From assembly GCA_963729715.1 (NCBI GenBank), contig CAVSPA010000006.1, forward strand, positions 438,528-502,527: a DNA stretch of 64,000 bases, in the 5' to 3' direction. The notes beneath the pieces were generated by a model that saw nothing but the letters and a program-made list of their open reading frames with translations, had not been told where the DNA came from and did not search any database. The DNA comes from an uncultured delta proteobacterium (lineage in GTDB: Bacteria; Desulfobacterota; Syntrophia; Syntrophales; UBA2185). Positions 3,443 to 21,606 of this stretch are shown here, piece by piece (position 1 is the stretch's first letter; each line of letters starts with the position of its first letter). The translations under genes were made by a program, and so were the position numbers.

Positions 3443-4188
3443 ATGAAGACAGTTTCTTTCCATACTCGATCCTTTGTGTTCTGTCTCTGCCTTCTGCTGG
3501 CAGGTGTTTTGCCGGATTGGTTTACGGCCAGCAGACGGGGATAGGGCAGCAAGATCGAATGCCAAACAGTGCGCCAGGTTTGGAGACCCAGATAGCGGCA
3601 GGGAAAAACACCATATACCAGGATCAGTAGGCTATAGCGGCAGCGCAAACTTTGCTGTCCGGATATATGCAGGATTGGGACACCCTGAAGAAGGAGCTCC
3701 TGGCATGCCGAAATGCACTGGACATCTCGAACAAAAAGTCCCAGGCAGACCAACATAAACTTGACGATCTGAATAAGCAGCTCCAGAGCGCGCAGGCAGC
3801 ACACAACCAGAAAGGAGCGGCCAACCTGCAGACCAAGATAACGGCGACACAGCAGGAAGTCAATATGTTATTGTCCTATATAACGGACTTAACGGGGCAA
3901 ATAAGCGATTTAGAGACGAATTTAATACCGCAGAATCAGCAAAAGGTCGCACAAGAACAAGCCGACCTAAACAGATTGCAGGATATACTCCAGCACGACC
4001 AGAATGCGTTGAACAATCTGAGACATGCAGGGCACATGGGCCAGCAAGGTACCGCCTCAAGCGCGGCGGCTCCGACCGACGCGAAGAGTGCAGCGAAGCA
4101 AGGAAGCGCTGCGGCTGCAAGCACCACTACAAACTCGGCTAGCGGACAGAAAGGTGCCGTTCCAGGACCAGGGCTACCCGTGGATTAG
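3443..4188 (+). pseudogene. Secreted coiled-coil/Q-rich protein, disrupted by a frameshift near 3510 and an in-frame TAG at 3628-3630
   Basis: GGAGG RBS, then ATG 3443 with a signal-like peptide that shifts frame in a T-run; ORFs 3433-3630 and 3652-4188 are in one frame separated by TAG. Confidence 0.55.
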
Positions 4189-5695: not shown

Positions 5696-7168
5696 GTGTC
5701 AAAACCTACATCCAGAACAAAAAAAGCAGATAATCTGAAATTAGTCGGAGCAGACGAATCCCATCAGGCCCGGCACAAATGTGATTTTTGCGAACTGGAA
5801 GATATCATTGAGGCATCCCATGACGGCCTTTTCATAACCGACGGGCAGGGGGTTATCCTGAGGGTAAATAGTGCATGGGAGCGTATTGCCGGAATCCAGA
5901 GGGACTTCGCCGTAGGAAAGTGCGCTAAGGACCTCGTAAATCATAAATGGTACACGGAATCTTCAGCAATGGCGGCAATCAGGGAAAGAAAGAAAGTGAC
6001 AGTCATGCTGGAGATGCTCAAAGGGGAAAAAATCGGCCAGAAAATAATGGCGACGGCCATACCCATATGGGGTGACGATGGTGAAATCAGGCGGGTTGTC
6101 GCCAATATCAGAGATATAACGGAAATACTCTATTTGAAGCAGTTGCTCGAGAAGACGCAGCGGTTGAATGAATTATATGCCGCCGAACTTGAGCAGATGA
6201 AGAACGTCGATATAGTCGCTCACAGCGAATCGACGAAGCGGCTAATGGAAATCGTGGCGCGCGTCGCCAGTTTCGATGTATCGGTGTTAATCACCGGCGA
6301 ATCCGGTGTGGGCAAGGAAGTGATTGCGAATGCCATACATCAGCAAAGCCAGCGCTCCAAGGGCCCTCTCATCAAGGTGAACTCCGGAGCAATTCCTGAA
6401 ACACTTCTTGAATCCGAACTTTTTGGTTACGATTACGGCGCTTTTACGGGTGCAAAAAAACAGGGGAAACCCGGCATGTTTGAGCTCGCAAATGAGGGGA
6501 CCCTGTTTCTCGACGAAGTCGGCGATATACCATACAGTCTACAGGGAAAACTCTTAAGAGCCCTGCAGGATCGTGAGATCATGCGGATTGGTGGCGTGAA
6601 GCCCGCTCCCGTCGATGTGCGCATTGTTGCGGCGACAAACAAGAATCTTGAAGAAATGGTAAAAAAAGGCACTTTCCGTGACGACCTTTATTATCGTCTG
6701 AACGTCGTTGCGATTGAGATTCCTCCGCTCCGTGAGCGCAAAGAAGACATACCTATGTTTGTTTTGCACTTTCTGGATAAGATGAACAAGAAACACCAGT
6801 ACAATAAGCGCATTTCACCGGAGGTTATAGATGTTCTGATGCTCTATTCCTGGCCCGGTAATGTGCGGGAATTGGAAAACGTAGTGGAGAGGATGATCAT
6901 CATGACGGAGGGTGATGAGATAACCATGAAGCATCTGCCCATTCAGATCAAAAGTCAGATCTCTGCTGATGCAATGAGCGTCATCGGGGGCAGCAGTTTC
7001 AAAACGACAATTGAGCAGGCGGAGAAGCAACTCCTGAAGCAGGCGCTCCAGAATCACAAGAGTACAAGAGGGATCGCCAAGGCAATGAAGATCAATCAAT
7101 CCACGGTCGTGCGCAAACTGAAGAAATATAACCTCGGTCCATCCCCGGATAACGAACCACAGAAATAA
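5696..7168 (+). CDS. PAS-domain sigma54-dependent transcriptional activator (bEBP)
   Basis: PAS domain, GESGVGKE Walker [25 protein letters not shown]-terminal HTH. Confidence 0.95.
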
Positions 7169-7275: not shown

Positions 7276-7728
7276 CTATTTGTAAACAGCCATCCGTTGG
7301 GAATGGGCCAGCCTCTTCATGATGCGCTGGGCATGGCGCACATGAATTTCTATGTGATAAATTTTCTTCAGATACTTAACCAGTTCCTTGCCGTCCCAGC
7401 GGTTACTGGAGACTCCAACTTCGCGCGGTGAATTCGTCAAGACCGCTTCGAGCTTCTTCATCACCTCCCTCTTAATGCGGGGCGGCCTGCCCATACGCCG
7501 TCGGTCGAGTACCGCCTCTGCTCCTTCCCTGTTTGCCTTCTGAATCCATTTCACTACCGTCCAGCGGGTTAAACCAAAAAGCTCCGCTGCCTGGGCGGAT
7601 TTCCACCCGGCCACAATCAGGAGCAGAACGGCGATACGTATCCCAATCCAGGCCCCAGGCGTCCGGTCGGCTAAACGAAGCAGAGCCTCTCTGGTAAGTT
7701 CCGGATGATCGAGCGTCAATGCCTTCAT
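7276..7728 (-). mobile_element. Stand-alone HTH protein resembling the IS630 transposase N-terminus (no DDE domain)
   Basis: AAELFGLTRWTVVKWI, GRPPR, PREVG..RWDGKEL..YL; no catalytic domain follows the stop. Confidence 0.65.
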
Positions 7729-7981: not shown

Positions 7982-9121
7982 CTATCTTAGAATGCTGCCG
8001 CCGATAACCATGCGCATTGCCTCGCTTGTGCCCTCATAGATCTGCGTAATCTTTGCATCTCGCATCAGGCGCTCCACGGGATATTCGCGGCTGTACCCGT
8101 AGCCACCAAATACCTGGACCGCGTCGGTCGTAACAGACATAGCGACATCGGAAGCAAACAGCTTAGCCATTGCCGCCTCTTTGGAATAAGGCAGGTCATT
8201 AGATTTGTTAAAAGCGGCTCGATACGTCATGAGACGGGCTGCCTCAACTTTTGTTGCCATGTTGGCGAGCATAAAGCTGATGCCCTGCTGGGTCGCTATG
8301 GGTTTTCCAAACTGAACACGCTGTTTTGCATATTTGATTGCGTGATCGAGAGCGCCCTGGGCAATGCCAACGGCCTGGGCAGCTATACCGATACGGCCGC
8401 CATCCAAAGTCGCCATGGCAATCCTAAACCCATCGCCTTCTTTTCCTAAGATGTTGGAGGCGGGGGTTTTTGCATTGACCATTATGACTTCGCGCTGTAC
8501 GGCTGCGCGAATACCCATTTTGGTTTCTTTCTTGCCGAAGCTCAAGCCCGGTGAACCTTTCTCGAGAATGAACGCGCTCATGCCCTTAAGGCCGGCCTCT
8601 TTATTTGTTTTGGTAAAGACAACCTCTACTTCCGCCTCTCCACCGTTTGTGTTGAAAACCTTGGTCCCGGTGATAAGATATGAATCTCCTTCTTTGACGG
8701 CAAATGTTGAGGCGTTGCCTACGTCTGTGCCTGCATTGGGTTCCGTTAGACCGAATGCGCCTAACTTTATGCCCTGGGCCAGCGGCACGAGGTATTTCTG
8801 TTTTTGCTCCTCCGTGCCGTACTTGTAGATTGGCCATGAACACAGCGACGTGTGCACCGACATACCGATGGAAGTTGACGCGTCTATGCGTGAAATTTCC
8901 TCAATTGCAATGGCATAAGCGACGAAGTCCATACCGCCTCCGCCGTACTTTTCGGGATAGGGAAGGCCCATGAGGCCCAGTTTACCCATTTCATCAAATA
9001 TACTCCTGTCAAACAGCTCTTTTTCATCACGCTCCACAATAGTCGGAGCCAGCTTCTTTTCCGCAAATTCCCGCACCATCTTGCGGATGCCTTCATTTTC
9101 CGGTGATACAGTAAAATTCAT
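7982..9121 (-). CDS. Acyl-CoA dehydrogenase (butyryl-CoA dehydrogenase-like)
   Basis: GAFGLTEPNAGTD, GGRIGIAAQAVG, RDAKITQIYEGTSE. Confidence 0.95.
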   Translation of the reverse strand: MNFTVSPENEGIRKMVREFAEKKLAPTIVERDEKELFDRSIFDEMGKLGLMGLPYPEKYGGGGMDFVAYAIAIEEISRIDASTSIGMSVHTSLCSWPIYKYGTEEQKQKYLVPLAQGIKLGAFGLTEPNAGTDVGNASTFAVKEGDSYLITGTKVFNTNGGEAEVEVVFTKTNKEAGLKGMSAFILEKGSPGLSFGKKETKMGIRAAVQREVIMVNAKTPASNILGKEGDGFRIAMATLDGGRIGIAAQAVGIAQGALDHAIKYAKQRVQFGKPIATQQGISFMLANMATKVEAARLMTYRAAFNKSNDLPYSKEAAMAKLFASDVAMSVTTDAVQVFGGYGYSREYPVERLMRDAKITQIYEGTSEAMRMVIGGSILR

Positions 9122-9203: not shown

Positions 9204-10397
9204 TTATTGCAGAACCTCCCGCAATTTGGCGGTCAATGCCGGTACGACTTCGTACACATCACCGACTATTCCGTAGGTCGCCACCTTGAAGATGGGAGCA
9301 TCAGGGTCTTTATTAATCGCAATTATAACGTCGGATGTCTGCATCCCGGCTAGATGCTGAATGGCGCCTGATATGCCGCAAGCGATATAGATTTTCGGCG
9401 CCACCGTTTTTCCTGTTTGACCGACCTGGTGCGGATAAGGCATCCAGCCCGCGTCAACAGCAGCACGGGACGATCCGACGGTGCCTTTCAAAACTTGCGC
9501 AAGCTCCTCCACCATCCTGAAGCCTTCCGGCTTTCCAAGTCCCCGCCCTCCGGATACGATGATCTCTGCGTCCTCGAGATTGCATGAGAAAGTGCAGACC
9601 TTGACGACATCGATGAGTTTTGTGCGAATGTCCTTCTCGTTTATTGCCAACTCTTCCCGGATTATTTTTCCCGTGCGGTTGTAGTCCGGTACAGGCTTCT
9701 TAAAGACCTTGGGCCTCACCGTTCCCATCTGCGGACGATTATCGGGGCAAAAGATCGTTGCCATGATATTGCCGCCGAAGGCAGGTCTTGTCCATGCAAC
9801 AAGCCTGGTTTCCGGATCTATGGAAAGATTCGTGCAGTCGGCAGTCAGGCCGGTCTTTACCCTGGCGGATACGCGGGGGCCTAAATCGCGGCCGTCATTG
9901 GTCGCGCCCAATAATATTACGGACGGCAGATACTTCCTGATCAGATGCGTAAAGGCGATTGAATACGCGTCCGTCGAATAGTGGTGAAAAGCGCTCCCTT
10001 CAACCAGGTACACATTGTCGGCGCCGCTCGCAAAAAGTTCCTTGCACATTTCCGCCACATTGTCGCCGATAAGGACGGCAGACAGCTCCTCGCCAAGCTC
10101 CTGGGCAAGCTTCCTGCCCTCGCCGACAAGTTCCAGTGAAACGTTGCGTATACGACCATCACGATGTTCTATGAATACCCAGACGCCCTTATAGGCGCTG
10201 ATGTCTTGCGCCTCTTCCGTTTTTTCCCGTTCTACCTTGATTGCGGATACGGGGCAGCTGCTTTCGCAAGCACCGCAGAATGTACAAGCTTCCGTGAGAA
10301 CGGCTTTATCATCTTTCATGACAATTGCGCCATAAGGACAACTGTCGATGCATGTTTGACAACCAATGCATTCTTCCGACAAAATCTTAACAGACAT
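9204..10397 (-). CDS. etfA: ETF alpha subunit with N-terminal 2x[4Fe-4S] ferredoxin domain
   Basis: CIGCQTCIDSCP and CTFCGACESSCP, then GLTADCT, QVGQTG, GISGAIQH. Confidence 0.95.
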   Translation of the reverse strand: MSVKILSEECIGCQTCIDSCPYGAIVMKDDKAVLTEACTFCGACESSCPVSAIKVEREKTEEAQDISAYKGVWVFIEHRDGRIRNVSLELVGEGRKLAQELGEELSAVLIGDNVAEMCKELFASGADNVYLVEGSAFHHYSTDAYSIAFTHLIRKYLPSVILLGATNDGRDLGPRVSARVKTGLTADCTNLSIDPETRLVAWTRPAFGGNIMATIFCPDNRPQMGTVRPKVFKKPVPDYNRTGKIIREELAINEKDIRTKLIDVVKVCTFSCNLEDAEIIVSGGRGLGKPEGFRMVEELAQVLKGTVGSSRAAVDAGWMPYPHQVGQTGKTVAPKIYIACGISGAIQHLAGMQTSDVIIAINKDPDAPIFKVATYGIVGDVYEVVPALTAKLREVLQ

Positions 10398-10418: not shown

Positions 10419-11201
10419 CTATAGTATCTTGGCCTGCCTCAACTTATCGACAAGCAAATCGACGGCTTCTTTGCTGTCGCCCTGAATAAGTTCACCCTTG
10501 CCGCGCCGCTCCGGAGTAAATATGCGCTTTACGAGCGTAGGTGAGCCCTCCAGGCCTGCGGATTTAGGATCTATGGCAATGTCAGCGGCAGTCCACACAG
10601 GGATTTCCGTGCGGTATGCCTTAGCAGTACCTCTCACTGTGGGAATACGGGGATCCATGGCCAGTTTTATGATGGTAACCACAAGAGGCGGTTTGGCCTC
10701 TATAACGTCATATCCCTCATCCTGTTCGCGGTGTGCAATGAGCTTTTCGCCGTCAAATTCGAGCGTGCTTATATAAGTCAACTGGCCGATGCCAAGATGT
10801 TCTGCCATTTCCGGTCCAACCTGGGCCGTATCTCCGTCAATCGCCTGCTTGCCGCAAATGACCAAATCGACGTTTCCCATTTTGCGCACTGCCTGAGATA
10901 ATGTGTAGGATGTAGCGAGCGTATCCGAGCCCGCAAATGCCCTATCGCTTAGAAGGACGGCTTCATCGGCGCCCATGGCGACACATTCCCGCAGTGCCGC
11001 CACTGCCTGCGGTGGCCCCATGCTGATCACTGTAACCTTTCCTCCGTGTTTATCCCTGAGCTGCAGCGCCATCTCGAGAGCATATTTGTCGAAGGGATTA
11101 ACAATGCTCGGCACTCCTTCCCTGACCAACGTGTTGGTGACAGGATCAATTTTGACTTCTGTGGTATCAGGTACCTGTTTGACACATACAACAATTTCCA
11201 T
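10419..11201 (-). CDS. etfB: ETF beta subunit (bifurcating-type motifs)
   Basis: CVKQVPD, NPFD, AFAGSDTLATS, CGKQAIDGDTAQVGP; GGAG RBS before ATG 11201. Confidence 0.95.
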   Translation of the reverse strand: MEIVVCVKQVPDTTEVKIDPVTNTLVREGVPSIVNPFDKYALEMALQLRDKHGGKVTVISMGPPQAVAALRECVAMGADEAVLLSDRAFAGSDTLATSYTLSQAVRKMGNVDLVICGKQAIDGDTAQVGPEMAEHLGIGQLTYISTLEFDGEKLIAHREQDEGYDVIEAKPPLVVTIIKLAMDPRIPTVRGTAKAYRTEIPVWTAADIAIDPKSAGLEGSPTLVKRIFTPERRGKGELIQGDSKEAVDLLVDKLRQAKIL

Positions 11202-11289
11202 AAAAATATTCACTCCTGGTTATGTTAAGAGTCATTTTGCATAGAGTATATGCAAATAACTTTTTTCTCTTCAATGCACCATTCAGCTA

Positions 11290-11719: not shown

Positions 11720-13051
11720 TTACGCTGCCTTCTTGGTAATGATAGGTTTAGAATCCGTTGTGAAGTACATCGCCACGGCACCTACTACGAGCGATGCCGC
11801 GCAGAACATAAAGGTGGCCTGGTATGCTTCCACTGGAAATTTACCGTTAACCTTTCCGTAGTGGTCAAGTACAACACCCATCAATGACTGATATAAAGCT
11901 CCTCCTACGAAGTACCATATATTCAGCATCCCGTTGGACGTCGCCATGAAGCTGGTCGGCTGACCGTCAGCTATATGTGCATAATTGGGCACATATGCGC
12001 CACAGAAGAAGCCCATGACAAATAACAAGGGATAAAACCACACAAGGGGAATCGATCCCGTAAAGAAAGCTATCGGTATCCAGGTCGCAACGTAGATAAG
12101 CATACCGTAGAAAGACGTGTTCCTGCGCGACTTCAGAACACGGTCGGAGCACCAACCGGCCGCAAAGCATCCGAGAGCCATCCCTATTGGCCAGAACATG
12201 AGCATGTTGGCCGCCTGCTGCTTGGGCATACCGTATATCTGCTGCGCGTATGGAATGAACCAGAGTCCCTGAAATCCCATGACCGTACCGTAGATCACAA
12301 AGGCGTAAAGTGATATCAACCAGTAGTTTTTCATCTTTAGCAGTTTTACAAAATTCTTTTTGAACGTGGTCTTCTGGGCGGCAGTCTGTACCGGGTAGTA
12401 GTCGATGCCGTCGATCTCTGAAACTGTTGGGTAACCCATATCGCTCGGTTTATTTCGGACGATCAGGTAGTCAACGATAGATATGAGGATCATGAAAGCG
12501 CCCAGCCATAAGAATGAATTCCGCCATCCGACGATACCCACCAGAAACGCAAGCGGTGCGGACGCGAGTATCGCGCCGACATTGCCCAGGGTGAGCATCA
12601 CACCCGTAAGTGTCGCTAATTCATTCGGCCGGAACCAGTTGTACAGGATCTTCATACAAGGCATCCAAACAACCGCGACGCCGACACCCATTAAAAAGCG
12701 GCCGAAGATACACCAGCCGAACGTCTGGGCCAAACCAAACAATGCAGTACCGATTGCCGCTATGACGAAAAACATGCTAACCGAAAGCCTGGGGCCTATT
12801 TTATCGGATAGGACTCCCGACGGGAACTGCATTGCTGCATAAGGATAAAAGTACATCGATGACAAAATACCAAGGGTCGTCGCTGTGAGACCGAATTCCT
12901 TCATCAGTTCCGGCGCAACAACCGCCGGTGAAACACGGTCGAAATATACAAAAATATACGTTAACAAGAACATTCCATAAGTAATCCAGCGATACGTAAT
13001 CATCTTCTTGGCTTTCACGGGATCAACTCCTGCGGCTACATTTGCACTCAT
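11720..13051 (-). CDS. MFS transporter (organic anion/OPA-like)
   Basis: About 12 TM helices, YFDRVS, GVLSDKIGPR motif A. Confidence 0.9.
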   Translation of the reverse strand: MSANVAAGVDPVKAKKMITYRWITYGMFLLTYIFVYFDRVSPAVVAPELMKEFGLTATTLGILSSMYFYPYAAMQFPSGVLSDKIGPRLSVSMFFVIAAIGTALFGLAQTFGWCIFGRFLMGVGVAVVWMPCMKILYNWFRPNELATLTGVMLTLGNVGAILASAPLAFLVGIVGWRNSFLWLGAFMILISIVDYLIVRNKPSDMGYPTVSEIDGIDYYPVQTAAQKTTFKKNFVKLLKMKNYWLISLYAFVIYGTVMGFQGLWFIPYAQQIYGMPKQQAANMLMFWPIGMALGCFAAGWCSDRVLKSRRNTSFYGMLIYVATWIPIAFFTGSIPLVWFYPLLFVMGFFCGAYVPNYAHIADGQPTSFMATSNGMLNIWYFVGGALYQSLMGVVLDHYGKVNGKFPVEAYQATFMFCAASLVVGAVAMYFTTDSKPIITKKAA

Positions 13052-13343: not shown

Positions 13344-14813
13344 TTATTTCTTTTTCTTTTCCGGCTCTGGAATTTCTTCAATGATGCCTGCAATTTTTCT
13401 TGCGTATTCGGCAAACTGGTCAACGGGGGTCAAGGATCTGACAACCAGCTTTGCGCCGTCAGGAGAACCGCCGCCGTGCATACATCCCGGTACGCCCGCG
13501 CCAAGCGTCAGCCACTCAGAAAGCCTTGCTGCGCGCGCCCTTGACTCAGCGCTGAACTTGGGGGAGGCTTTAAGAGCCGCCTGGACCATGGTCCCGATCT
13601 TCTGGTCATTAAAGTCCTTCGAAGATGGGAAGCAACCGGTTTCGACGATACCGCCGCCGATATCCTGGCAGATACGCTTTGTTTCATAGGGAAGGGTCGC
13701 CACATGCACTTTATTGGCATGGGCTGTCAGGGAATCTGAAACCCACATGCCGCCCGGACCTTTCTTCCCGAGGGCCATCGAACCGATTCCCATGCAGTAT
13801 GTAGTTTCATTATTAACCGCCATCTCCACCAGCTTGTTTGCAAACGTGCTTGCAGCCAATCCATTCGTCCTCGCCATAAGCGCCGCGGCGCCGATCATCA
13901 CGTCTCCCTGACCGGCCACACATGCGCCGATGCAGGACCGGTAGTTGGCTGTAAAGTATTCTATTATCTTTCCCGTGTATTTTGATTCCTTGCACATGAA
14001 CACCCTGTCATTGGGGACAAAACAGTCCTTGAAGAACAGAAAAGACTGGGTGATGCCGGAGTCCGGAATGTCGAATCCGCCTTCCATTTCTCTTGTGTCG
14101 CTCGGTCTCCGGGCTTCCACTATAGTGAGACCCTTTATGTCACGCGGTACTACGCAGCTCACTGCATAGTCTTGATCTTCTTCCCTGTAACCACTTCCGG
14201 GCAGGATAAATATCTCATTGGAAGCGGCAACACCACAGATCATCGCCTTCATGCCGCTGATTACGATGCCGTCTTCACGGACTTCCGTAATATGCACATT
14301 GCTGTCCGGGTTCGCCTGCTGTGACGGTCTCAGGCTTCTGTCGCCTTTTGCATCTGTAAGGGCACCCGATACGACGAGCCCGTTCTTCTGGGTATTGATA
14401 ATCCACTTCTTGAGACGCTCCTGGTACTTGGTTCCGAGCTCCTTGTCCATTTGCGATGTGATATTCCACATAACGTTCTGGGCATTCCAGCCTACGCACA
14501 CGCCCCCGCTGCAGCTTCCCGTAAGGCGGTACATCCATCTTTTAAACTTGGAATTGCCCATGATGTCTTCAAGGGTTTCCATCATGGAATTCCACCTGTG
14601 GATCTTTTCACCACTTAGGAAAGTGGATGTAGTAGTGAAATCCTCGGCCAATTTCGGGTCACGTGACGCATCGAATGCCCGTGCGTGGCTTTCTACTACT
14701 CTCTTTGTCGCCGGATGAGTCGTAACATCCTCGATCAGCTCACCGAATTTGTAGATGTTCGGTTTCATTACCTTTAATGATTTCTTGTATTCTTCTCTCG
14801 TCTTCAAAGCCAT
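13344..14813 (-). CDS. 4-hydroxybutyryl-CoA dehydratase (AbfD)/HpaB-fold flavoprotein with non-canonical active site
   Basis: GALTDAKGDRS, GDVMIGAAAL, DIGGG, MHGGGSP match AbfD; catalytic positions substituted (see findings). Confidence 0.85.
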   Translation of the reverse strand: MALKTREEYKKSLKVMKPNIYKFGELIEDVTTHPATKRVVESHARAFDASRDPKLAEDFTTTSTFLSGEKIHRWNSMMETLEDIMGNSKFKRWMYRLTGSCSGGVCVGWNAQNVMWNITSQMDKELGTKYQERLKKWIINTQKNGLVVSGALTDAKGDRSLRPSQQANPDSNVHITEVREDGIVISGMKAMICGVAASNEIFILPGSGYREEDQDYAVSCVVPRDIKGLTIVEARRPSDTREMEGGFDIPDSGITQSFLFFKDCFVPNDRVFMCKESKYTGKIIEYFTANYRSCIGACVAGQGDVMIGAAALMARTNGLAASTFANKLVEMAVNNETTYCMGIGSMALGKKGPGGMWVSDSLTAHANKVHVATLPYETKRICQDIGGGIVETGCFPSSKDFNDQKIGTMVQAALKASPKFSAESRARAARLSEWLTLGAGVPGCMHGGGSPDGAKLVVRSLTPVDQFAEYARKIAGIIEEIPEPEKKKK

Positions 14814-14856: not shown

Positions 14857-16431
14857 TTAAAGTTCCTTCTTCAATATCTCAGGTTTGATGCCCATCGGCC
14901 CTTCCTTAAAAAGGCGTGCATCCATCAATTTAACCTCAGGAGCGATGAGCGGCCTGTATTCCATCTGAGATAATACGTCCTTCTCCATATCCAAGCCGGG
15001 AGCAATTTCCGTCAGCATGACGCCTTCAGGCGTGAGTTTAAAGACAGCCCGTTCCGTCACATAAAGGACCGTCTGACCACTTGCCTTTCCGTATTCACCG
15101 CTGAACGTGATATGCTCCACCTTCTTGACTAACTTCTTTACCTTTCCTTCTTTTACGATCTTGAGCTTTCCGTCGCCAATGCCCAACTCGAGACCGCTTG
15201 CCGTCAGCGTTCCACAGAAGACAACCCTCTTTGTACTCTGGGTGATGTTAATAAATCCTCCTGCTCCGGCTATCCTGGGGCCGAACTTACTGACGTTCAC
15301 GTTTCCGAACTGATCCATTTCCGCCATTCCCAGGACCGCAAGGTCGAGCCCGCCGCCGTCATAAAAATCAAACATGAGGGGATGGTCAACCAGGGCTTCG
15401 GGATTTATTGCCGATCCGAAATAGAGCTTGCCTCCAGGGACGCCGCCAATCGCTCCCGGCTCAACTGTCATTGTCATCAATTCGATCAGATCCTCTTCGG
15501 CTGCGACGGCGCCGCAGCCTTCCGGCATGCCGATGCCCATGTTTACGACTGCATTCGGGATAAGTTCCATAACGCACCTTCGGCAGATAACTTTTCTTTC
15601 GCTCATCGGGAGAGGCGCTATGCGACTCAGAGGGACCCTTGTTTCACCGCAAAGGCTGGGATTGTATTGCTCGGCCATGGGAACCTGCCAGTGGTTCTCA
15701 GGCTTCGCAACTACAATTGCATCCACCCATACTTTGGGTATCTTGACCATCATCGGATGAATCGTACCCGCTTTTGTCACCCTTTCCACCTGCACGATGA
15801 CTTTGCCGCCAGAACCCTTGGCAGCAAGCGCCAATAAGGCAAACTCCAGGGATATGGCTTCTCTTTCAATGGATATATTGCCATTTTCATCTGCGGTAGT
15901 TCCGCGCACAATGGCAACATTGATGGGTATGGCCTTGTAGAAAAGGTATTCCTTGCCATCAATCTCCATTAAACGGACGTACTCTTCGTGGCTGATGCTG
16001 TTTAGTTTTCCACCGGTTTCTCTCGGATCCACAAATGTCCTCAGGCCGACGTGCGTAATGACGCCCGGCTTCTTGCCGGCGGTGGCTCGAAAGACGTGGA
16101 GAATGACGCCTTGGGGAATATTGTATGCCTCTATCTTATTGGCGACAGCCATCTTGATTAGATCAGGCTGCAAGCCCCAATGGCCTGATACGACCTTTCT
16201 CACCAGACCTTCTTTTGCCCAGCGATTCAGTCCCCAGTTTGATTTTCCGTCATTCTGGCTTGCGCCAAATGTAAGCGTTAAGTTGTTTGGTTGACCTGTT
16301 TCCAAAAAGCTCTTTTCTACTGCCTTTGAAAGTTCTTCCGGATGACCCATTCCGACGAATCCGGAAGTTGCCACAGTGTCTCCATTCTTGATCAGCTTAA
16401 TCGCCTCTTCTGCAGTCATAAATTTTGCCAC
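14857..16431 (-). CDS. Family I acyl-CoA:acetate CoA-transferase (Pct/YdiF-like, fused alpha-beta)
   Basis: VGLRTFVDPR, NMGIGMP, catalytic Glu in TVEPGAIGG, FDFYDGGGLD, GAGGFINI. Confidence 0.92.
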   Translation of the reverse strand: MAKFMTAEEAIKLIKNGDTVATSGFVGMGHPEELSKAVEKSFLETGQPNNLTLTFGASQNDGKSNWGLNRWAKEGLVRKVVSGHWGLQPDLIKMAVANKIEAYNIPQGVILHVFRATAGKKPGVITHVGLRTFVDPRETGGKLNSISHEEYVRLMEIDGKEYLFYKAIPINVAIVRGTTADENGNISIEREAISLEFALLALAAKGSGGKVIVQVERVTKAGTIHPMMVKIPKVWVDAIVVAKPENHWQVPMAEQYNPSLCGETRVPLSRIAPLPMSERKVICRRCVMELIPNAVVNMGIGMPEGCGAVAAEEDLIELMTMTVEPGAIGGVPGGKLYFGSAINPEALVDHPLMFDFYDGGGLDLAVLGMAEMDQFGNVNVSKFGPRIAGAGGFINITQSTKRVVFCGTLTASGLELGIGDGKLKIVKEGKVKKLVKKVEHITFSGEYGKASGQTVLYVTERAVFKLTPEGVMLTEIAPGLDMEKDVLSQMEYRPLIAPEVKLMDARLFKEGPMGIKPEILKKEL

Positions 16432-16503: not shown

Positions 16504-16518
16504 GCAATTTATATGCCA
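16504..16518 (-). promoter_or_regulatory. Sigma54 (-24/-12) promoter of the CoA-transferase operon
   Basis: Minus strand reads TGGCATATAAATTGC (GG-N10-GC), about 70 nt upstream of the start. Confidence 0.8.
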
Positions 16519-16966: not shown

Positions 16967-17914
16967 TCATTTCTTTAATTCAGAGATGAGTTTCGGCATC
17001 ACATCGTAGAGATCGCCGATGATGCCGAAGTCTGCCGCCTTGAATATGGGGGCATTCTCATCCTTATTTATGGCGGCGATTATCTTGGCATTACGTATGC
17101 CGGTAACATGCTGAACCTGGCCGGAAACCCCGATGCCCAGATAGAGATCCGGTTTCACCTGCACGCCGGAAAGACCGATGCATAGTTCTTCCGGTAGCCA
17201 GTGGAGCTCTTCGGCAATGGGCCTCGTGCAGGCTATTGAACCGTCCACGACATCGGCCAATTGACGGGCAATGGCCAGGTCTTCCTCCTTCTCCATTCCT
17301 CTTCCTACGCAGACAACGACCCGCGCTTCGGAGATGTCTTTCGCCTCCTTTTGTTTCACCTTTCTCTCAATGACCTTAATTGTGGAAAATGATGGCGAAG
17401 GGAGTTCTCGGACGTTCCCTTGTCGTTCTGTCTCAGGCATCGCTGTCTCATAAGTCCTCGGTGGGATGGTGGCCATGGCGGGCCGGGCCGAGCAAATCAC
17501 CTTCTGCAGGGCTGCTCCTCCATATGCCAACCGTTCCATCAGCAACGTTTTGCTCCCTTCATCAAAATCTATCTCCGTACAACTGCTCACGAGACCTACA
17601 TTCAGTCGTGCCGCAAGCTGGGCTGCCATATTTTTTCCTCTCGGCGTGGCGGAAAGGAGGATCAGATCGGGGTCTCCCTTTTTTGCTTCTTTTAAGATAA
17701 CCGGGATGCAGCTTTCCGTGGGCTGTTCACTGCTAAGCGGGGGAAGAAGCATGACCTCATCCGCTCCATGGCTGACGCAGTCCTTCGCATGTTCGCGTTC
17801 CTGGTAAAGAAGCGCGGCTGCATGCGTTCCCATCTTATCGGCCAACTGTCGGCCAATATTCAAAAGCTCCATCGATTGCCTGCGGTTTTCCGAAATTATC
17901 CAGACTCCTGACAT
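16967..17914 (-). CDS. fixB: ETF alpha subunit, FixB-type
   Basis: CTRPIAEE, IGLSGVQVKP, GVSGQVQH. Confidence 0.88.
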   Translation of the reverse strand: MSGVWIISENRRQSMELLNIGRQLADKMGTHAAALLYQEREHAKDCVSHGADEVMLLPPLSSEQPTESCIPVILKEAKKGDPDLILLSATPRGKNMAAQLAARLNVGLVSSCTEIDFDEGSKTLLMERLAYGGAALQKVICSARPAMATIPPRTYETAMPETERQGNVRELPSPSFSTIKVIERKVKQKEAKDISEARVVVCVGRGMEKEEDLAIARQLADVVDGSIACTRPIAEELHWLPEELCIGLSGVQVKPDLYLGIGVSGQVQHVTGIRNAKIIAAINKDENAPIFKAADFGIIGDLYDVMPKLISELKK

Positions 17915-17924
17915 ATGATCTCCT

Positions 17925-18692
17925 TTAACCGATGACGCCTTTCTTGCGCAATGACCCCACGAACCGGGCTATCTCTGCGGCGTCTGTCCCAAACCTCTCG
18001 CAGCTCCTTTCCATCGCTGAAGCCGTGAGGCTGATGGTCCTAAGCAGGGGCTCACCTACGGGCGGCAGTTCATCCTTCGTAATCTTCACAGTCGGCTTCT
18101 TTCCCGCCATCAGGGTATCCTTAACACCGGGGATCCTCGGGACATTGATATCGGGGAGAACCGTCACCAGGGCAGGCAGCGGCGCCGTGATCACTTCAAT
18201 GCCCTCTTCGACGCGACGCTCCGCGACGAGCTGGTCCTTTCCAAGGGAGAGCTTCTGTACGAAGGAAATGCAGGGTATCTCGAGTCGTTCTGCCAGGCGG
18301 GGGCCGACCTGCTGGGCATAGAGGTCACTCGAACCCTCGCCGCAGAGGATGATGTCATACTGTCCTATTCTACTGCGGATAACCTCTGCCAGGATGAGGG
18401 CAGTCTGGGAGGAATCCAGATTACCGAAAGAACTGTCGACTATAAAATAGGCCTCGTCGGTCCGACGGGAGAGGGCATCCTTGACGCCTTTTGCGGCCTC
18501 GGGCATACCGACGGTGACGGCGATGGCCTTCCCTCCAAGGGCTTCCTTGAGCCGTACGGCTTCCTCGATGGCATTGCGGTCATACTCGCCGATCTTGTAA
18601 TCTACGGAGGAGAAGTCCAAATCACCGGATGGCCCGCGCCGGATGTAGGCCTCATCGATGACCCATTTGAAACAGGCAATAATAGAAAACAT
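17925..18692 (-). CDS. fixA: ETF beta subunit, FixA-type
   Basis: IGEYDRNAIE, CGEGSSDLYAQQVG (similar to enterobacterial FixA/YdiQ). Confidence 0.88.
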   Translation of the reverse strand: MFSIIACFKWVIDEAYIRRGPSGDLDFSSVDYKIGEYDRNAIEEAVRLKEALGGKAIAVTVGMPEAAKGVKDALSRRTDEAYFIVDSSFGNLDSSQTALILAEVIRSRIGQYDIILCGEGSSDLYAQQVGPRLAERLEIPCISFVQKLSLGKDQLVAERRVEEGIEVITAPLPALVTVLPDINVPRIPGVKDTLMAGKKPTVKITKDELPPVGEPLLRTISLTASAMERSCERFGTDAAEIARFVGSLRKKGVIG

Positions 18693-18742
18693 AAACTGAC
18701 ACCCTTATAATATTTTCAAGGCGGGCTTCATATTTCAGAGGC

Positions 18743-19882
18743 TCAGCGGAGCACGGTCCCGGAGATCACCATGCGCATTGCTTCACTTGTGCCCTCGTAT
18801 ATCTCCGTGATCTTGGCGTCGCGCATCAAACGCTCCACCTTGGCGCCCTTGCAGTAGCCGTATCCGCCATGTATCTGGACGGCCTTCACGGTGTGCCGCA
18901 TGGCTGCTTCCGATGCATAGAGTTTCGCCATCGCCGCTTCCTTACTGAATGGCAGCTTCTGGTCTTTGAGCCAGGCCGCATGATAGGCAAGGAATCGGGC
19001 GGCAGAGAGATCCGTAGCCATGTCCGCTATCATCCAGGCAATGGCTTGGTTGCGTGCTATGGGGGAACCGAATTGTATCCTCTCCTTGGAATACCGGATA
19101 GACTCGTCGAGGGCCGCCTGGAGGATGCCGATGCATTGGGCGGCGATTCCTATCCGGCCGCCGTCGAAGCCGGTCATTGCCATCGGAAGACCTGCCCCTT
19201 CCTTACCGAGAAGATTATTCTTAGGAACACGGCAGTCCTTGAAGATCAGCTCGGATGTCTGCGACGAACGGAGGCCCATCTTCTTGAAATGCTCGCCCAC
19301 CCTGAAACCGGGCGCTTCCCGGGGGACTATGAATGTGCTCATGCCTTTGCGCCCAGCCGCTTTGTCCGTCCACGCGAAGACCAGGTATGTGCCCGCAGTG
19401 GGGCCATTGGACGTGAAGGTTTTGGTTCCATTGATGACATAATCATTACCGTCTAAAACTGCGGCGGTAGTTACGGCCATCACGTCGGTGCCTGCACCGG
19501 GCTCGGTCAGGGCGAAAGCCCCTAAATGCCTGCCTTCGGCCATGGGTGTCAGGTAATTCTTCTTCTGCTCTTCCGTACCGAAGAGATGTATCATCGTGCA
19601 CACGATGCCGGCATGGGTTGATATGGTAAACCCCGTGGAGGCGCATGACCGGGAAAGTTCTTCCACGACAATGATGCTCGTCAAAAAGTCAGCCCCGGCT
19701 CCTCCGTACTCCTGCGGAACAGGTATGCCCATCCAGCCCCCAGCGGAGAGTTTTTCAAACAACTCGGCCGGGTGACGGCTGTTCTCATCGATTTCCGCGG
19801 CAATGGGTTCCACGTTCTTCACGCAGAATTCTCGCACATTCTTACGAATCAGTTCTTGTTCCTCAGTAAATTTGAAATCCAT
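18743..19882 (-). CDS. Acyl-CoA dehydrogenase (second paralogue)
   Basis: GAFALTEPGAGTD, RDAKITEIYEGTSE. Confidence 0.95.
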   Translation of the reverse strand: MDFKFTEEQELIRKNVREFCVKNVEPIAAEIDENSRHPAELFEKLSAGGWMGIPVPQEYGGAGADFLTSIIVVEELSRSCASTGFTISTHAGIVCTMIHLFGTEEQKKNYLTPMAEGRHLGAFALTEPGAGTDVMAVTTAAVLDGNDYVINGTKTFTSNGPTAGTYLVFAWTDKAAGRKGMSTFIVPREAPGFRVGEHFKKMGLRSSQTSELIFKDCRVPKNNLLGKEGAGLPMAMTGFDGGRIGIAAQCIGILQAALDESIRYSKERIQFGSPIARNQAIAWMIADMATDLSAARFLAYHAAWLKDQKLPFSKEAAMAKLYASEAAMRHTVKAVQIHGGYGYCKGAKVERLMRDAKITEIYEGTSEAMRMVISGTVLR

Positions 19883-20038
19883 AACATTCATCCCCTCGAT
19901 TTTATTGTCCGGACCATCACCTCGGCCAAGCGGCCCTTTAGCATTGACGTTACGGTAGAGTCTCTCAGCCGCAATGACGTGGAATTAAAAAAAATCAACT
20001 ATACAGTTGGTTTTGCCGTCAGGAAAAATATATCATGC

Positions 20039-20323
20039 CTAACCGAAACGGTACTGCACACCTGTTCCTCCGGGTGGATAATTCCAATCCAGAATTTCCG
20101 TGCCGCAAACGAGACGACAGGTGCCGCACTCGAGACAGCCGTCTATAGTGAGCACGACCTCGCCTTTTTCGTTCTCGCTGTAGAGGCCGGCAGGACATAC
20201 GCGGAGAGCCGGCTTCAGGCGCAGGTCTTTTTCCATGCCTTGTCTGATCCTGATGTGGGGTTCGCCGGCCGGCTTGAACACATCGAGCCCCAGTTTAGCC
20301 TTCAAGTCCAGCATCTCTCTCAT
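20039..20323 (-). CDS. fixX: FixX ferredoxin-like protein
   Basis: CPAGLY, GCLECGTCRLVC, WNYPPGGTGV; ATGA overlap with the fixC stop. Confidence 0.9.
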   Translation of the reverse strand: MREMLDLKAKLGLDVFKPAGEPHIRIRQGMEKDLRLKPALRVCPAGLYSENEKGEVVLTIDGCLECGTCRLVCGTEILDWNYPPGGTGVQYRFG

Positions 20324-21606
20324 ATCTTCATTACCCCTTTCAGATCCATGAAGAGGGCCCACAATTCGCTGAGAGTGAAGCTCTTTCTGATGGTCGGGTA
20401 CAACCTTTCCTTGGGGCCTGCGGGAACGGAGTAGACATCTTTCATGATTTCCCCAATCAGCTCCGGGTAATGGTTTAAGAACCGCGGATTTCCGAGTACA
20501 GCGGGCGTTTCCTGAAAGTTTCTCAAATCAGTGAGAACGAAGCTGTCATCGAGGAGTCTCCTGTACATACTCAGGGTCTGTGCGTCATAATTTCCTACTT
20601 CCTTGGCCTTCATGACGGTCTGGGCGGCGAAGTGGCCTGAAGCCAGGGCAAATTCCATGCCCCTCACTGTGAAACCGATGTTCAGTGCGAGCCCGGCAGC
20701 GTCGCCCGCAATCAGGATACCGTTTCCGTACAGGTTACCCATGACCTTGAAGCCGCCCTCGGGAATGACATGGGCCGAATACTCTACGGTGCCGCCGCCG
20801 TTGATTAGGGGGGCGATCTCAGGCCGCTTCTTAAATGCGTCCATGAGCGCAGGCACTTCGATGGGAAGGGTGTCTCTTGTAGCATCCTCCATGCCGATGA
20901 CAATGCCCAAACTGACACTGTCCCTGTTCGTGTAGAGAAAACCCCCGCCGAATTTTCCCAGGGTTACTTCTCCCACAAAGAGGCGCGCCGCACCCTCGTC
21001 GCCTTCCAGATTGAAACGTTCATTGATAACCCCGGAATCGAGGGCGATGACTTCTTTGATTCCGAGGGCGAAGTTGCCGGGCGCCACGGGCGCGCGCAGG
21101 CCCGCTTTTTCGGAAACGATGGATAATACGCCGTCACAGGCAAGCACAACGTCGGCGCGCAGTTCATCGGCGCCTGCAAGGACACCAACGATTATTCCAT
21201 CGTCCTTGATGACATCGTCGACTCTGATCTTGGATAAAATGGCGACCCCTTTTTCTTCCGCCCGTTCCGAGAGCCACTTGTCGAACTTCGACCGCAGGAT
21301 ACTATAGCTCTGGTGGGGTTCATCCGTGAGCTCATTGCCGGTATAGTGCAGGGTTACCGAGCGATCTTTTGCCATGATTGATATTCCTTCATGGGCTATG
21401 AAGCGCTCGAGGGGGGCGTTTTCGAAGAGGCCGGGAAACAGCTTGCGAACGGGATTCAAGTAAAGACGGCCACCCGTCATGTTCTTTGCACCGGGATAGT
21501 CACCCCGTTCCAGAACCAGCACCTCAAGACCGCTCCCTGCAAGCGTATACGCCGCACCGAGGCCGGCCAGTCCAGCGCCTACTATGATCACATCGAACTT
21601 ATCCAT
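20320..21606 (-). CDS. fixC: FixC FAD-dependent ETF:quinone oxidoreductase
   Basis: GAGLAG, ERGDYPGAKNMTGG, GGGFLYTN, EYSAHVIPEGG, GDAAG. Confidence 0.92.
   Translation of the reverse strand: MDKFDVIIVGAGLAGLGAAYTLAGSGLEVLVLERGDYPGAKNMTGGRLYLNPVRKLFPGLFENAPLERFIAHEGISIMAKDRSVTLHYTGNELTDEPHQSYSILRSKFDKWLSERAEEKGVAILSKIRVDDVIKDDGIIVGVLAGADELRADVVLACDGVLSIVSEKAGLRAPVAPGNFALGIKEVIALDSGVINERFNLEGDEGAARLFVGEVTLGKFGGGFLYTNRDSVSLGIVIGMEDATRDTLPIEVPALMDAFKKRPEIAPLINGGGTVEYSAHVIPEGGFKVMGNLYGNGILIAGDAAGLALNIGFTVRGMEFALASGHFAAQTVMKAKEVGNYDAQTLSMYRRLLDDSFVLTDLRNFQETPAVLGNPRFLNHYPELIGEIMKDVYSVPAGPKERLYPTIRKSFTLSELWALFMDLKGVMKI

Follow-up and report, generated by a model that had tools for sequence, protein, structure and literature searches.

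An AbfD-fold protein clade of anaerobic bacteria with a predicted role in C–S cleavage of thio-propionyl-CoA

What reaction is catalyzed by a protein that has the fold of 4-hydroxybutyryl-CoA dehydratase (AbfD), but has exchanged the residues that matter for dehydration? The question is raised by an open reading frame of 489 aa (13344–14813, minus strand; ribosome site AAGGAGG), here called X, in a 64 kb stretch of DNA (the window) from an uncultured member of the Syntrophales. The original prediction, made from the sequence and its motifs, described X as an AbfD-fold enzyme with a rebuilt, cysteine-rich active site, which is not a 4-hydroxybutyryl-CoA dehydratase and defines an undescribed catabolic pathway.

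The assignment of fold holds. X contains the Pfam domains HpaB_N and HpaB, and its top match in the PDB is AbfD of C. aminobutyricum (1u8v, E 2.5e-90). The predicted monomer model (pLDDT 78; residues 435–462 below 50) matches 1U8V with a Z of 37.9 and an rmsd of 2.0 over 381 residues. Likeness to AbfD (1U8V; N. maritimus, 6VJR) amounts to 36% identity and includes the C-terminal HG motif. In the alignment to 1u8v, from which residues are indexed, the cluster ligands C99, C103 and C299 are kept as C101, C106 and C298 (codons C101 to C106 at 14496–14513, minus strand), and R90 as R92. The remaining ligand, H292, is replaced by Y291 (codons Y291 to C298 at 13920–13943, minus strand). Further exchanges are T190 to C193, E257 to Q256, S295 to C294, Y296 to I295, K300 to V299, S456 to C444 and A460 to G448; E455 is either replaced by G443 or deleted. 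Every motif swap in the original prediction proved right, but its list overlooked a two-residue insertion that creates the segment E391-T-G-C394 (13632–13643, minus strand). Going by ACAD structures, we take this segment to lie near the flavin of the partner subunit.

Dehydration by AbfD involves four cluster ligands, together with T190, E257, Y296 and E455 as important residues, and the archaeal variants E260Q and T194V have reduced activity (10.1101/2020.02.05.935528, in the passages available). None of H292, Y296, E257 and E455 is retained in X. Because X has lost H292 and the four dehydration residues, it is probably not a 4-hydroxybutyryl-CoA dehydratase, as originally predicted; a canonical AbfD at another site of the genome (C5:629471) and the gene neighbors described below support the same conclusion.

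X is not an isolated oddity. Among representatives at 50% identity a profile search gave full-length matches at 747, 698 and 620 bits, the next falling to 372, and in a tree of 109 family rows a branch with support 100 separates 16 clade members from the rest. The clade is discrete and is spread over several anaerobic phyla. After dereplication at 95%, all 192 members have E391 and C394, as well as C106 and C298; C101 and Y291 are each present in 191, C444 in 185 and C193 in 168 (the other 24 have Ala), whereas C294 is found in only 95. In a wider set of 410 sequences C394 is missing from all 97 that fall outside the clade. Since E391 and C394 are invariant and C294 is not, the signature of the clade, as read from the alignment, is Y291 plus the ETGC insertion and not general cysteine richness; the cysteine-rich site originally predicted relies in part on C294, which is not conserved, and leaves out the invariant C394. 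The same count rules out C294 as fourth cluster ligand. Selenocysteine was also considered and rejected: stops within matches (7 of 223 alignments) are all terminal. Three RNA runs gave only short fragments of 90–99% identity, from relatives, and none supports expression.

In the window's phylum the clade is represented in 29 of the 401 sampled genomes; in genome sets sampled around four other genomes the counts are 11 of 401 (G001), 15 of 162 (G009), 21 of 251 (G002) and 1 of 251 (G004). Cultured Pelotomaculum, Desulfopila, Megasphaera and Intestinimonas carry the gene, and the nearest named loci, among the matches listed, are from Syntrophales. The GTDB scan found relatives encoded in at least 569 of 597 stretches among the matches listed, of which 80 were kept; the metagenome scan contributed 80 of 473.

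The genome to which the window belongs (G000; contamination 6.5%) encodes nine full-length family members, among them the canonical AbfD and another copy of the clade. The latter (C18:41142–42668) is 93% identical to X and lies among Mrp/NBP35, NifU-like and Fe-S genes, without a CoA-transferase or ACAD. The seven further full-length paralogs are on C3, C4, C5, C7 and C9, and four of them have altered active-site sets of their own (for example H292Q and E257T/S/D). The family tree shows many such uncharacterised lineages. As many AbfD paralogs have diverged, divergence in itself is nothing unusual; what is new about the clade is a testable hypothesis concerning sulfur. No characterisation of the clade was found in a literature search, from whose coverage subscription papers mostly fall out, and the matched passages of a 2026 DMSP review name no such enzyme; the description of X as uncharacterised is thus upheld within that coverage.

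The immediate neighbors of X are those originally predicted. A family I CoA-transferase of the YdiF/Pct type (14857–16431, minus strand; 524 aa; 2ahu, E 1.5e-133) is located 43 bp upstream, and an MFS transporter (11720–13051, minus strand), PgtP/GlpT-like and under the curated cut-offs of the family profiles, 292 bp downstream. Family profiles identify the genes that follow as EtfB (10419–11213, minus strand) and an EtfA with an N-terminal 2[4Fe-4S] ferredoxin domain (9204–10397, minus strand). Next comes a short-chain acyl-CoA dehydrogenase (ACAD; 7982–9121, minus strand), which is Bcd/AcrC-like: it reaches 484 bits with the AcrC model, for which the cut-off is 640, and by sequence it fits butyryl-CoA dehydrogenases at least as well. 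A tree of ACADs does not separate C3 from C4 specificity. Given gaps of 292 bp between X and the MFS gene and 506 bp after it, the transporter and the ETF/ACAD genes may or may not share the transcript of X. A second cluster of ACAD, EtfB, EtfA, FixX and FixC, recognised from open reading frames and profiles, lies just upstream (16967–21606, minus strand); relatives often carry it downstream, within the same operon.

A sigma54-type promoter, also part of the original prediction, is indicated by the box TGGCATATAAATTGC (16504–16518, minus strand), one of two motif matches in the window. The box is conserved: of 29 related CoA-transferase ORFs, 20 are preceded by it, and it is absent from all 29 control segments. 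The window contains both a -24/-12 box and a linked enhancer-binding protein, the latter a convergent PAS-domain sigma54 activator (5696–7168, plus strand; family profiles) with homologs near 31 of 188 clade groups. The sole other sigma54-like box is at 3498–3512 (plus strand). Between the ACAD and the activator is a small HTH ORF (7276–7728, minus strand), which to our eye resembles the N-terminus of an IS630-type transposase; homologs are present in L011, L012 and L046, and also before metY in L040.

In order to identify neighbors that are conserved, we compared 188 clade groups with flanks (220 loci and the two copies from the window's genome; mean flank 7.5 kb) with 67 control loci that hold AbfD paralogs from outside the clade (mean flank 9.5 kb); the controls are hand-picked, mostly from around G002 and not dereplicated. 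A CoA-activating gene is found within 5 kb in 75 of the 188 groups, and its type varies (Pct 33, PaaK-like 17, AMP-forming ligase 17, Cat2 5, CaiB 4), which argues that the substrate of X is a CoA ester. ACAD or EtfA lies within 5 kb in 77 of 188. The module of import, CoA activation, reaction and ACAD/ETF is conserved, as the original prediction implied. Genes of the butyrate pathway, thiolase or Hbd, on the same strand are depleted (3/188, against 18/67 in controls), though on either strand they occur beside 13 groups. Genes for MCM, MeaB or PCC on either strand are not significantly enriched (9/188 versus 1/67, p 0.46); in six metagenome loci a methylmalonyl-CoA mutase, beyond the 5 kb limit, is divergent from an operon of ACAD, ligase, ETF, DUF6125 and X.

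Several variants of this arrangement deserve mention. The operon ACAD-ligase-EtfB-EtfA-DUF6125-X is conserved in L130, L135, L145, L152–L154 and L159, often divergent from methylmalonyl-CoA mutase, and DUF6125 homologs occur in 26 of 80 metagenome loci; atlas look-ups of DUF6125 and of an orphan permease returned generic names only. In L063, L067, L070, L072 and L073 the order is GntR, carboxyltransferase, CaiB transferase, X and aldehyde:ferredoxin oxidoreductase, an operon that is possibly for a dicarboxylic thio-acid. In L057 and L066 X and another AbfD paralog, from outside the clade and related to G000 C5:619653, form a tandem pair.

A second kind of neighborhood points to sulfur. In L083 the operon reads Rrf2-metY-cysK-metQNI-X-CBS-CGL-CoA-transferase; in L040 metY-cysK-ssuA-type ABC-crotonase-X-CBS; in L251 cysK-X-ligase-ssuA-type ABC-metY; and in L254 metY-metQNI-X-ligase-rhodanese. 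These four operons are tight, with gaps of 21–69 bp to metI, cysK or CBS. L279 and L282 have the order ligase-X-metQNI, and L037 has CBS with CGL. Two later loci, outside the tallies, repeat the ligase-X-metQ layout and are 93% and 99% identical to counted loci. A SAM riboswitch was detected once among 10 loci scanned, ahead of metY in L284 and not of X.

How often does this association occur? Sulfur genes in the broad sense (metY, cysK/CBS, metQ/metI, ssuA-type binder, cysteine desulfurase, homocysteine methyltransferase) lie on the same strand within 5 kb in 13 of 188 clade groups and in none of the 67 controls (Fisher p 0.023); for the core assimilation set the figures are 10/188 and 0/67, which is not significant (p 0.067). 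The background in the window's own genome (one genome) is 20 of 1558 ORFs for the broad set and 9 of 1558 for the core set. The remaining 175 groups have no sulfur gene within 5 kb, and the window operon itself has no sulfur-assimilation gene. On a tree of 47 hand-chosen rows, the eleven members with core sulfur context require five changes, four of them forced by starred branches, and monophyly is rejected (p-AU 7e-10). Two of the sulfur-context members, L028 and L037, fall in the smallest starred group that also holds X.

A search for longer forms of X returned three proteins. The first (P0430, with P0432 and P0433) is a full-length fusion of X to O-acetylhomoserine sulfhydrylase, 936 aa long and above the TIGR01326 cut-off, a type of enzyme that captures methanethiol or sulfide (PMC7157515, passages available). 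The fusion is represented by three sequences on four contigs from two sources, all in one 90% cluster. In its nearest relative, L284, metY already lies 2.4 kb downstream, so the fusion may simply join neighbors. The second, P0429, fuses X to an ACAD and is known from one sequence. The third, P0431, combines a partial X with molybdopterin and ligase pieces; it looks chimeric and was left out.

These data lead to a specific proposal. That X performs some form of sulfur release we consider quite probable. That it cleaves 3-(methylthio)- or 3-mercaptopropionyl-CoA to acrylyl-CoA and methanethiol or H2S is a prediction to which we give an even chance. Somewhat short of even is the broader reading, in which the clade is the missing anaerobic demethiolase or desulfhydrase for 3-methylthiopropionate (MMPA) and 3-mercaptopropionate, an AbfD scaffold that has exchanged radical dehydration for Fe-S-assisted C–S cleavage and serves either energy metabolism or, with MetY and CysK, sulfur supply.

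We infer the cofactors, substrate, products and mechanism as follows. The sigma54 activator would sense the acid, the MFS transporter import it and the CoA-transferase convert it to the CoA ester; X would then eliminate the thiol (methanethiol or sulfide) from 3-thio-propionyl-CoA by beta-elimination. For energy, ACAD/ETF would reduce acrylyl-CoA to propionyl-CoA, so pulling an otherwise unfavorable elimination. In the assimilatory lineages X would act with a CoA ligase, the thiol would be fed to MetY or CysK, and acrylyl-CoA could be removed by a crotonase, as in L040. At the active site the three kept cysteines would ligate a [4Fe-4S] cluster; its fourth iron, left open by H292Y, may bind the substrate sulfur, by analogy with Fe-S desulfidases, where an open cluster iron binds sulfur. 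In a beta-elimination no unactivated hydrogen has to be abstracted by a radical, so a change from gamma- to beta-elimination would explain why the T190/E257 dyad, Y296 and E455 were lost.

Each element of the proposal has its own support. An enoyl-CoA product is favored by ACAD or EtfA beside 77 of 188 groups, by the ACAD fusion and by the crotonase of L040. A C3 rather than a C4 substrate is suggested by the depletion of thiolase/Hbd and by the divergent mutase of the six metagenome loci. Entry via methionine, and hence MMPA, is favored by CBS directly after X (L083, L040) and by CBS with CGL (L037), whereas adjacency to cysK favors sulfide as product. 3-Methylthiopropionate arises as an end product when methionine is fermented, thioglycolate when cysteine is (PMC3942289, passages available). 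The claim of a catabolic pathway must be divided: the conserved ACAD/ETF module agrees with it, but several lineages place X in sulfur-assimilation operons without ACAD/ETF, and the clade is therefore not only catabolic. Against the proposal counts the kept flavin site, for which plain beta-elimination does not account.

One rival is reductive C–S cleavage, in which X would be an ETF-coupled redox enzyme converting, for example, thioglycolyl-CoA to acetyl-CoA or thio-propionyl-CoA directly to propionyl-CoA, with a persulfide on C193, C394 or C444 between substrate and FAD. X-EtfA fusions exist and fit a redox role; P0122 and L256 are sisters, however, so the fusion may be a single event joining adjacent genes (an apparent EtfA fusion in L076 is a frame artefact). 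Reductive cleavage is rather doubtful, given that C193 is replaced by Ala in 24 of 192 members, that sulfur-island copies have no ETF/ACAD within 5 kb, and that both the ACAD fusion and the crotonase of L040 hint at an enoyl-CoA as product.

Elimination of sulfite from 3-sulfo- or 3-sulfinopropionyl-CoA has a precedent within the fold in the 3SP-CoA desulfinase (PMC5373536, passages available). Sulfite release also fits the SsuA-type binders that lie beside 4 of 188 groups and, in the L284/L352 island, a gene resembling sulfite reductase; the same island has a TauE-like gene (by eye, with no family match at cut-off), and the window's genome carries dsrA. MetQNI, CBS and CGL, in contrast, point to thioether or thiol sulfur; a recurring sulfite exporter was not found among the neighbor clusters scanned, and 4 of the 10 tested genomes that carry the clade, that of L083 included, have no PF01077 match, though these assemblies may be incomplete. 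We regard sulfite elimination as unlikely.

Equally improbable, in our judgment, is a substrate without sulfur (a short acid with a hydroxy, amino, ether or halogen substituent), for which the sulfur islands would be incidental or a specialised sub-branch. The 175 groups that have no nearby sulfur gene speak for it, as do the many other unexplained AbfD paralog lineages and the occurrence of BCCT, amino-acid permease and aminotransferase neighbors. It has to contend with repeated, non-monophyletic recruitment into sulfur operons of members with the same active-site motifs, close relatives of X among them, and with the absence of sulfur neighbors from all 67 controls.

The chemistry closest to AbfD and BbuA would be gamma-elimination from 4-(methylthio)- or 4-mercaptobutyryl-CoA to crotonyl-CoA. 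This would account for the flavin and is compatible with a window ACAD closest to butyryl-CoA dehydrogenases and with the 13 groups having thiolase or Hbd on either strand, but thiolase/Hbd is depleted relative to controls, and such C4 acids are rarer in nature. Moreover, the dyad that protonates the flavin in the radical route is lost, and Q256 corresponds to the damaging E260Q variant (10.1101/2020.02.05.935528, passages available); C4 gamma-elimination is very unlikely. Most improbable of all is that X has kept 4-hydroxybutyryl-CoA dehydratase or vinylacetyl-CoA isomerase activity, despite its database names, its nearest solved structure and its three kept cysteines and R90: H292, T190, E257, Y296 and E455 are all replaced, canonical copies coexist in the genome, and a Cat2-type transferase is beside only 5 of 188 clade groups, against 27 of 67 controls.

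From AbfD itself the clade differs in its gene neighbors as well as in H292 (Tyr in 191/192), the T190/E257 dyad (C/A and Q), Y296 (I), K300 (V), E455 (G) and the insertion. The archaeal type-2 4-hydroxybutyryl-CoA dehydratase homologs, AbfD paralogs that are likewise uncharacterised and whose cluster site is altered, are a mirror image, keeping H292 without the cysteines, whereas the clade keeps the cysteines and loses H292 (PMC4681859, passages available). HpaB-type flavin monooxygenases share Pfam families and fold with X, but clade hosts are anaerobic and the cluster cysteines are kept; X reaches 99.9 bits with TIGR02309 (cut-off 480) and 68.4 with TIGR02310 (cut-off 885). The desulfinase Acd of Advenella (5AF7, 5AHS) shares the superfamily fold (Z 15.6) and cleaves the C–S bond of a C3 CoA ester; it differs in identity (13%) and, according to the passages available, in acting after an O2-dependent dioxygenase and in releasing sulfite. 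Its profile, NF042439, gives no match to X at E 0.001. Acd presumably has no cluster cysteines. BbuA, the gamma-butyrobetainyl-CoA TMA-lyase, is likewise a flavin-dependent, redox-neutral lyase in an operon with a CoA-transferase, but has ~10% identity to AbfD and cleaves C–N at C4 (10.1101/2021.01.25.428109, passages available). Like both of these, X would put an ACAD-type fold to use as a lyase. In the aerobic DmdB/DmdC/DmdD route MMPA is also CoA-activated and methanethiol released; in that route oxidation by an ACAD comes first, and the thiol is freed by a crotonase (PMC5395565, passages available). X, by contrast, is predicted to eliminate directly as one Fe-S flavoprotein, with the ACAD reducing, and would replace DmdC and DmdD.

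Anaerobes excrete 3-methylthiopropionate made from methionine (PMC3942289), and the enzymatic routes found for MMPA (DmdBCD, PMC5395565) and 3-mercaptopropionate (dioxygenase and desulfinase, PMC5373536) are, in the passages available, from aerobes. An anaerobic enzyme removing sulfur from 3-methylthiopropionate was not found in our literature search, which mostly does not extend to subscription papers. If the predicted C–S lyase is real, anaerobes would have a route for recycling organic sulfur that has so far not been described. Syntrophs, sulfate reducers, gut fermenters and sediment microbes would draw energy from it, and anoxic habitats would have a second biological source of methanethiol, one that does not depend on methionine gamma-lyase. 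A named candidate in 29 of 401 sampled genomes of the phylum and in cultured organisms makes the gap directly testable. There is also a consequence for annotation: clade proteins carry the label 4-hydroxybutyryl-CoA dehydratase, which serves as a marker for butyrate formation and for carbon fixation, and they can be told apart by the Y291/ETGC signature.

Two further observations concern the sulfur islands. Adjoining that of L254 is a family 2B encapsulin with a cysteine desulfurase (L351:4343–7673). In L284 (4740–5645), L282, L352 and L354 a creatininase-family hydrolase lies between X/ligase and metQNI, and could open a cyclic sulfur precursor.
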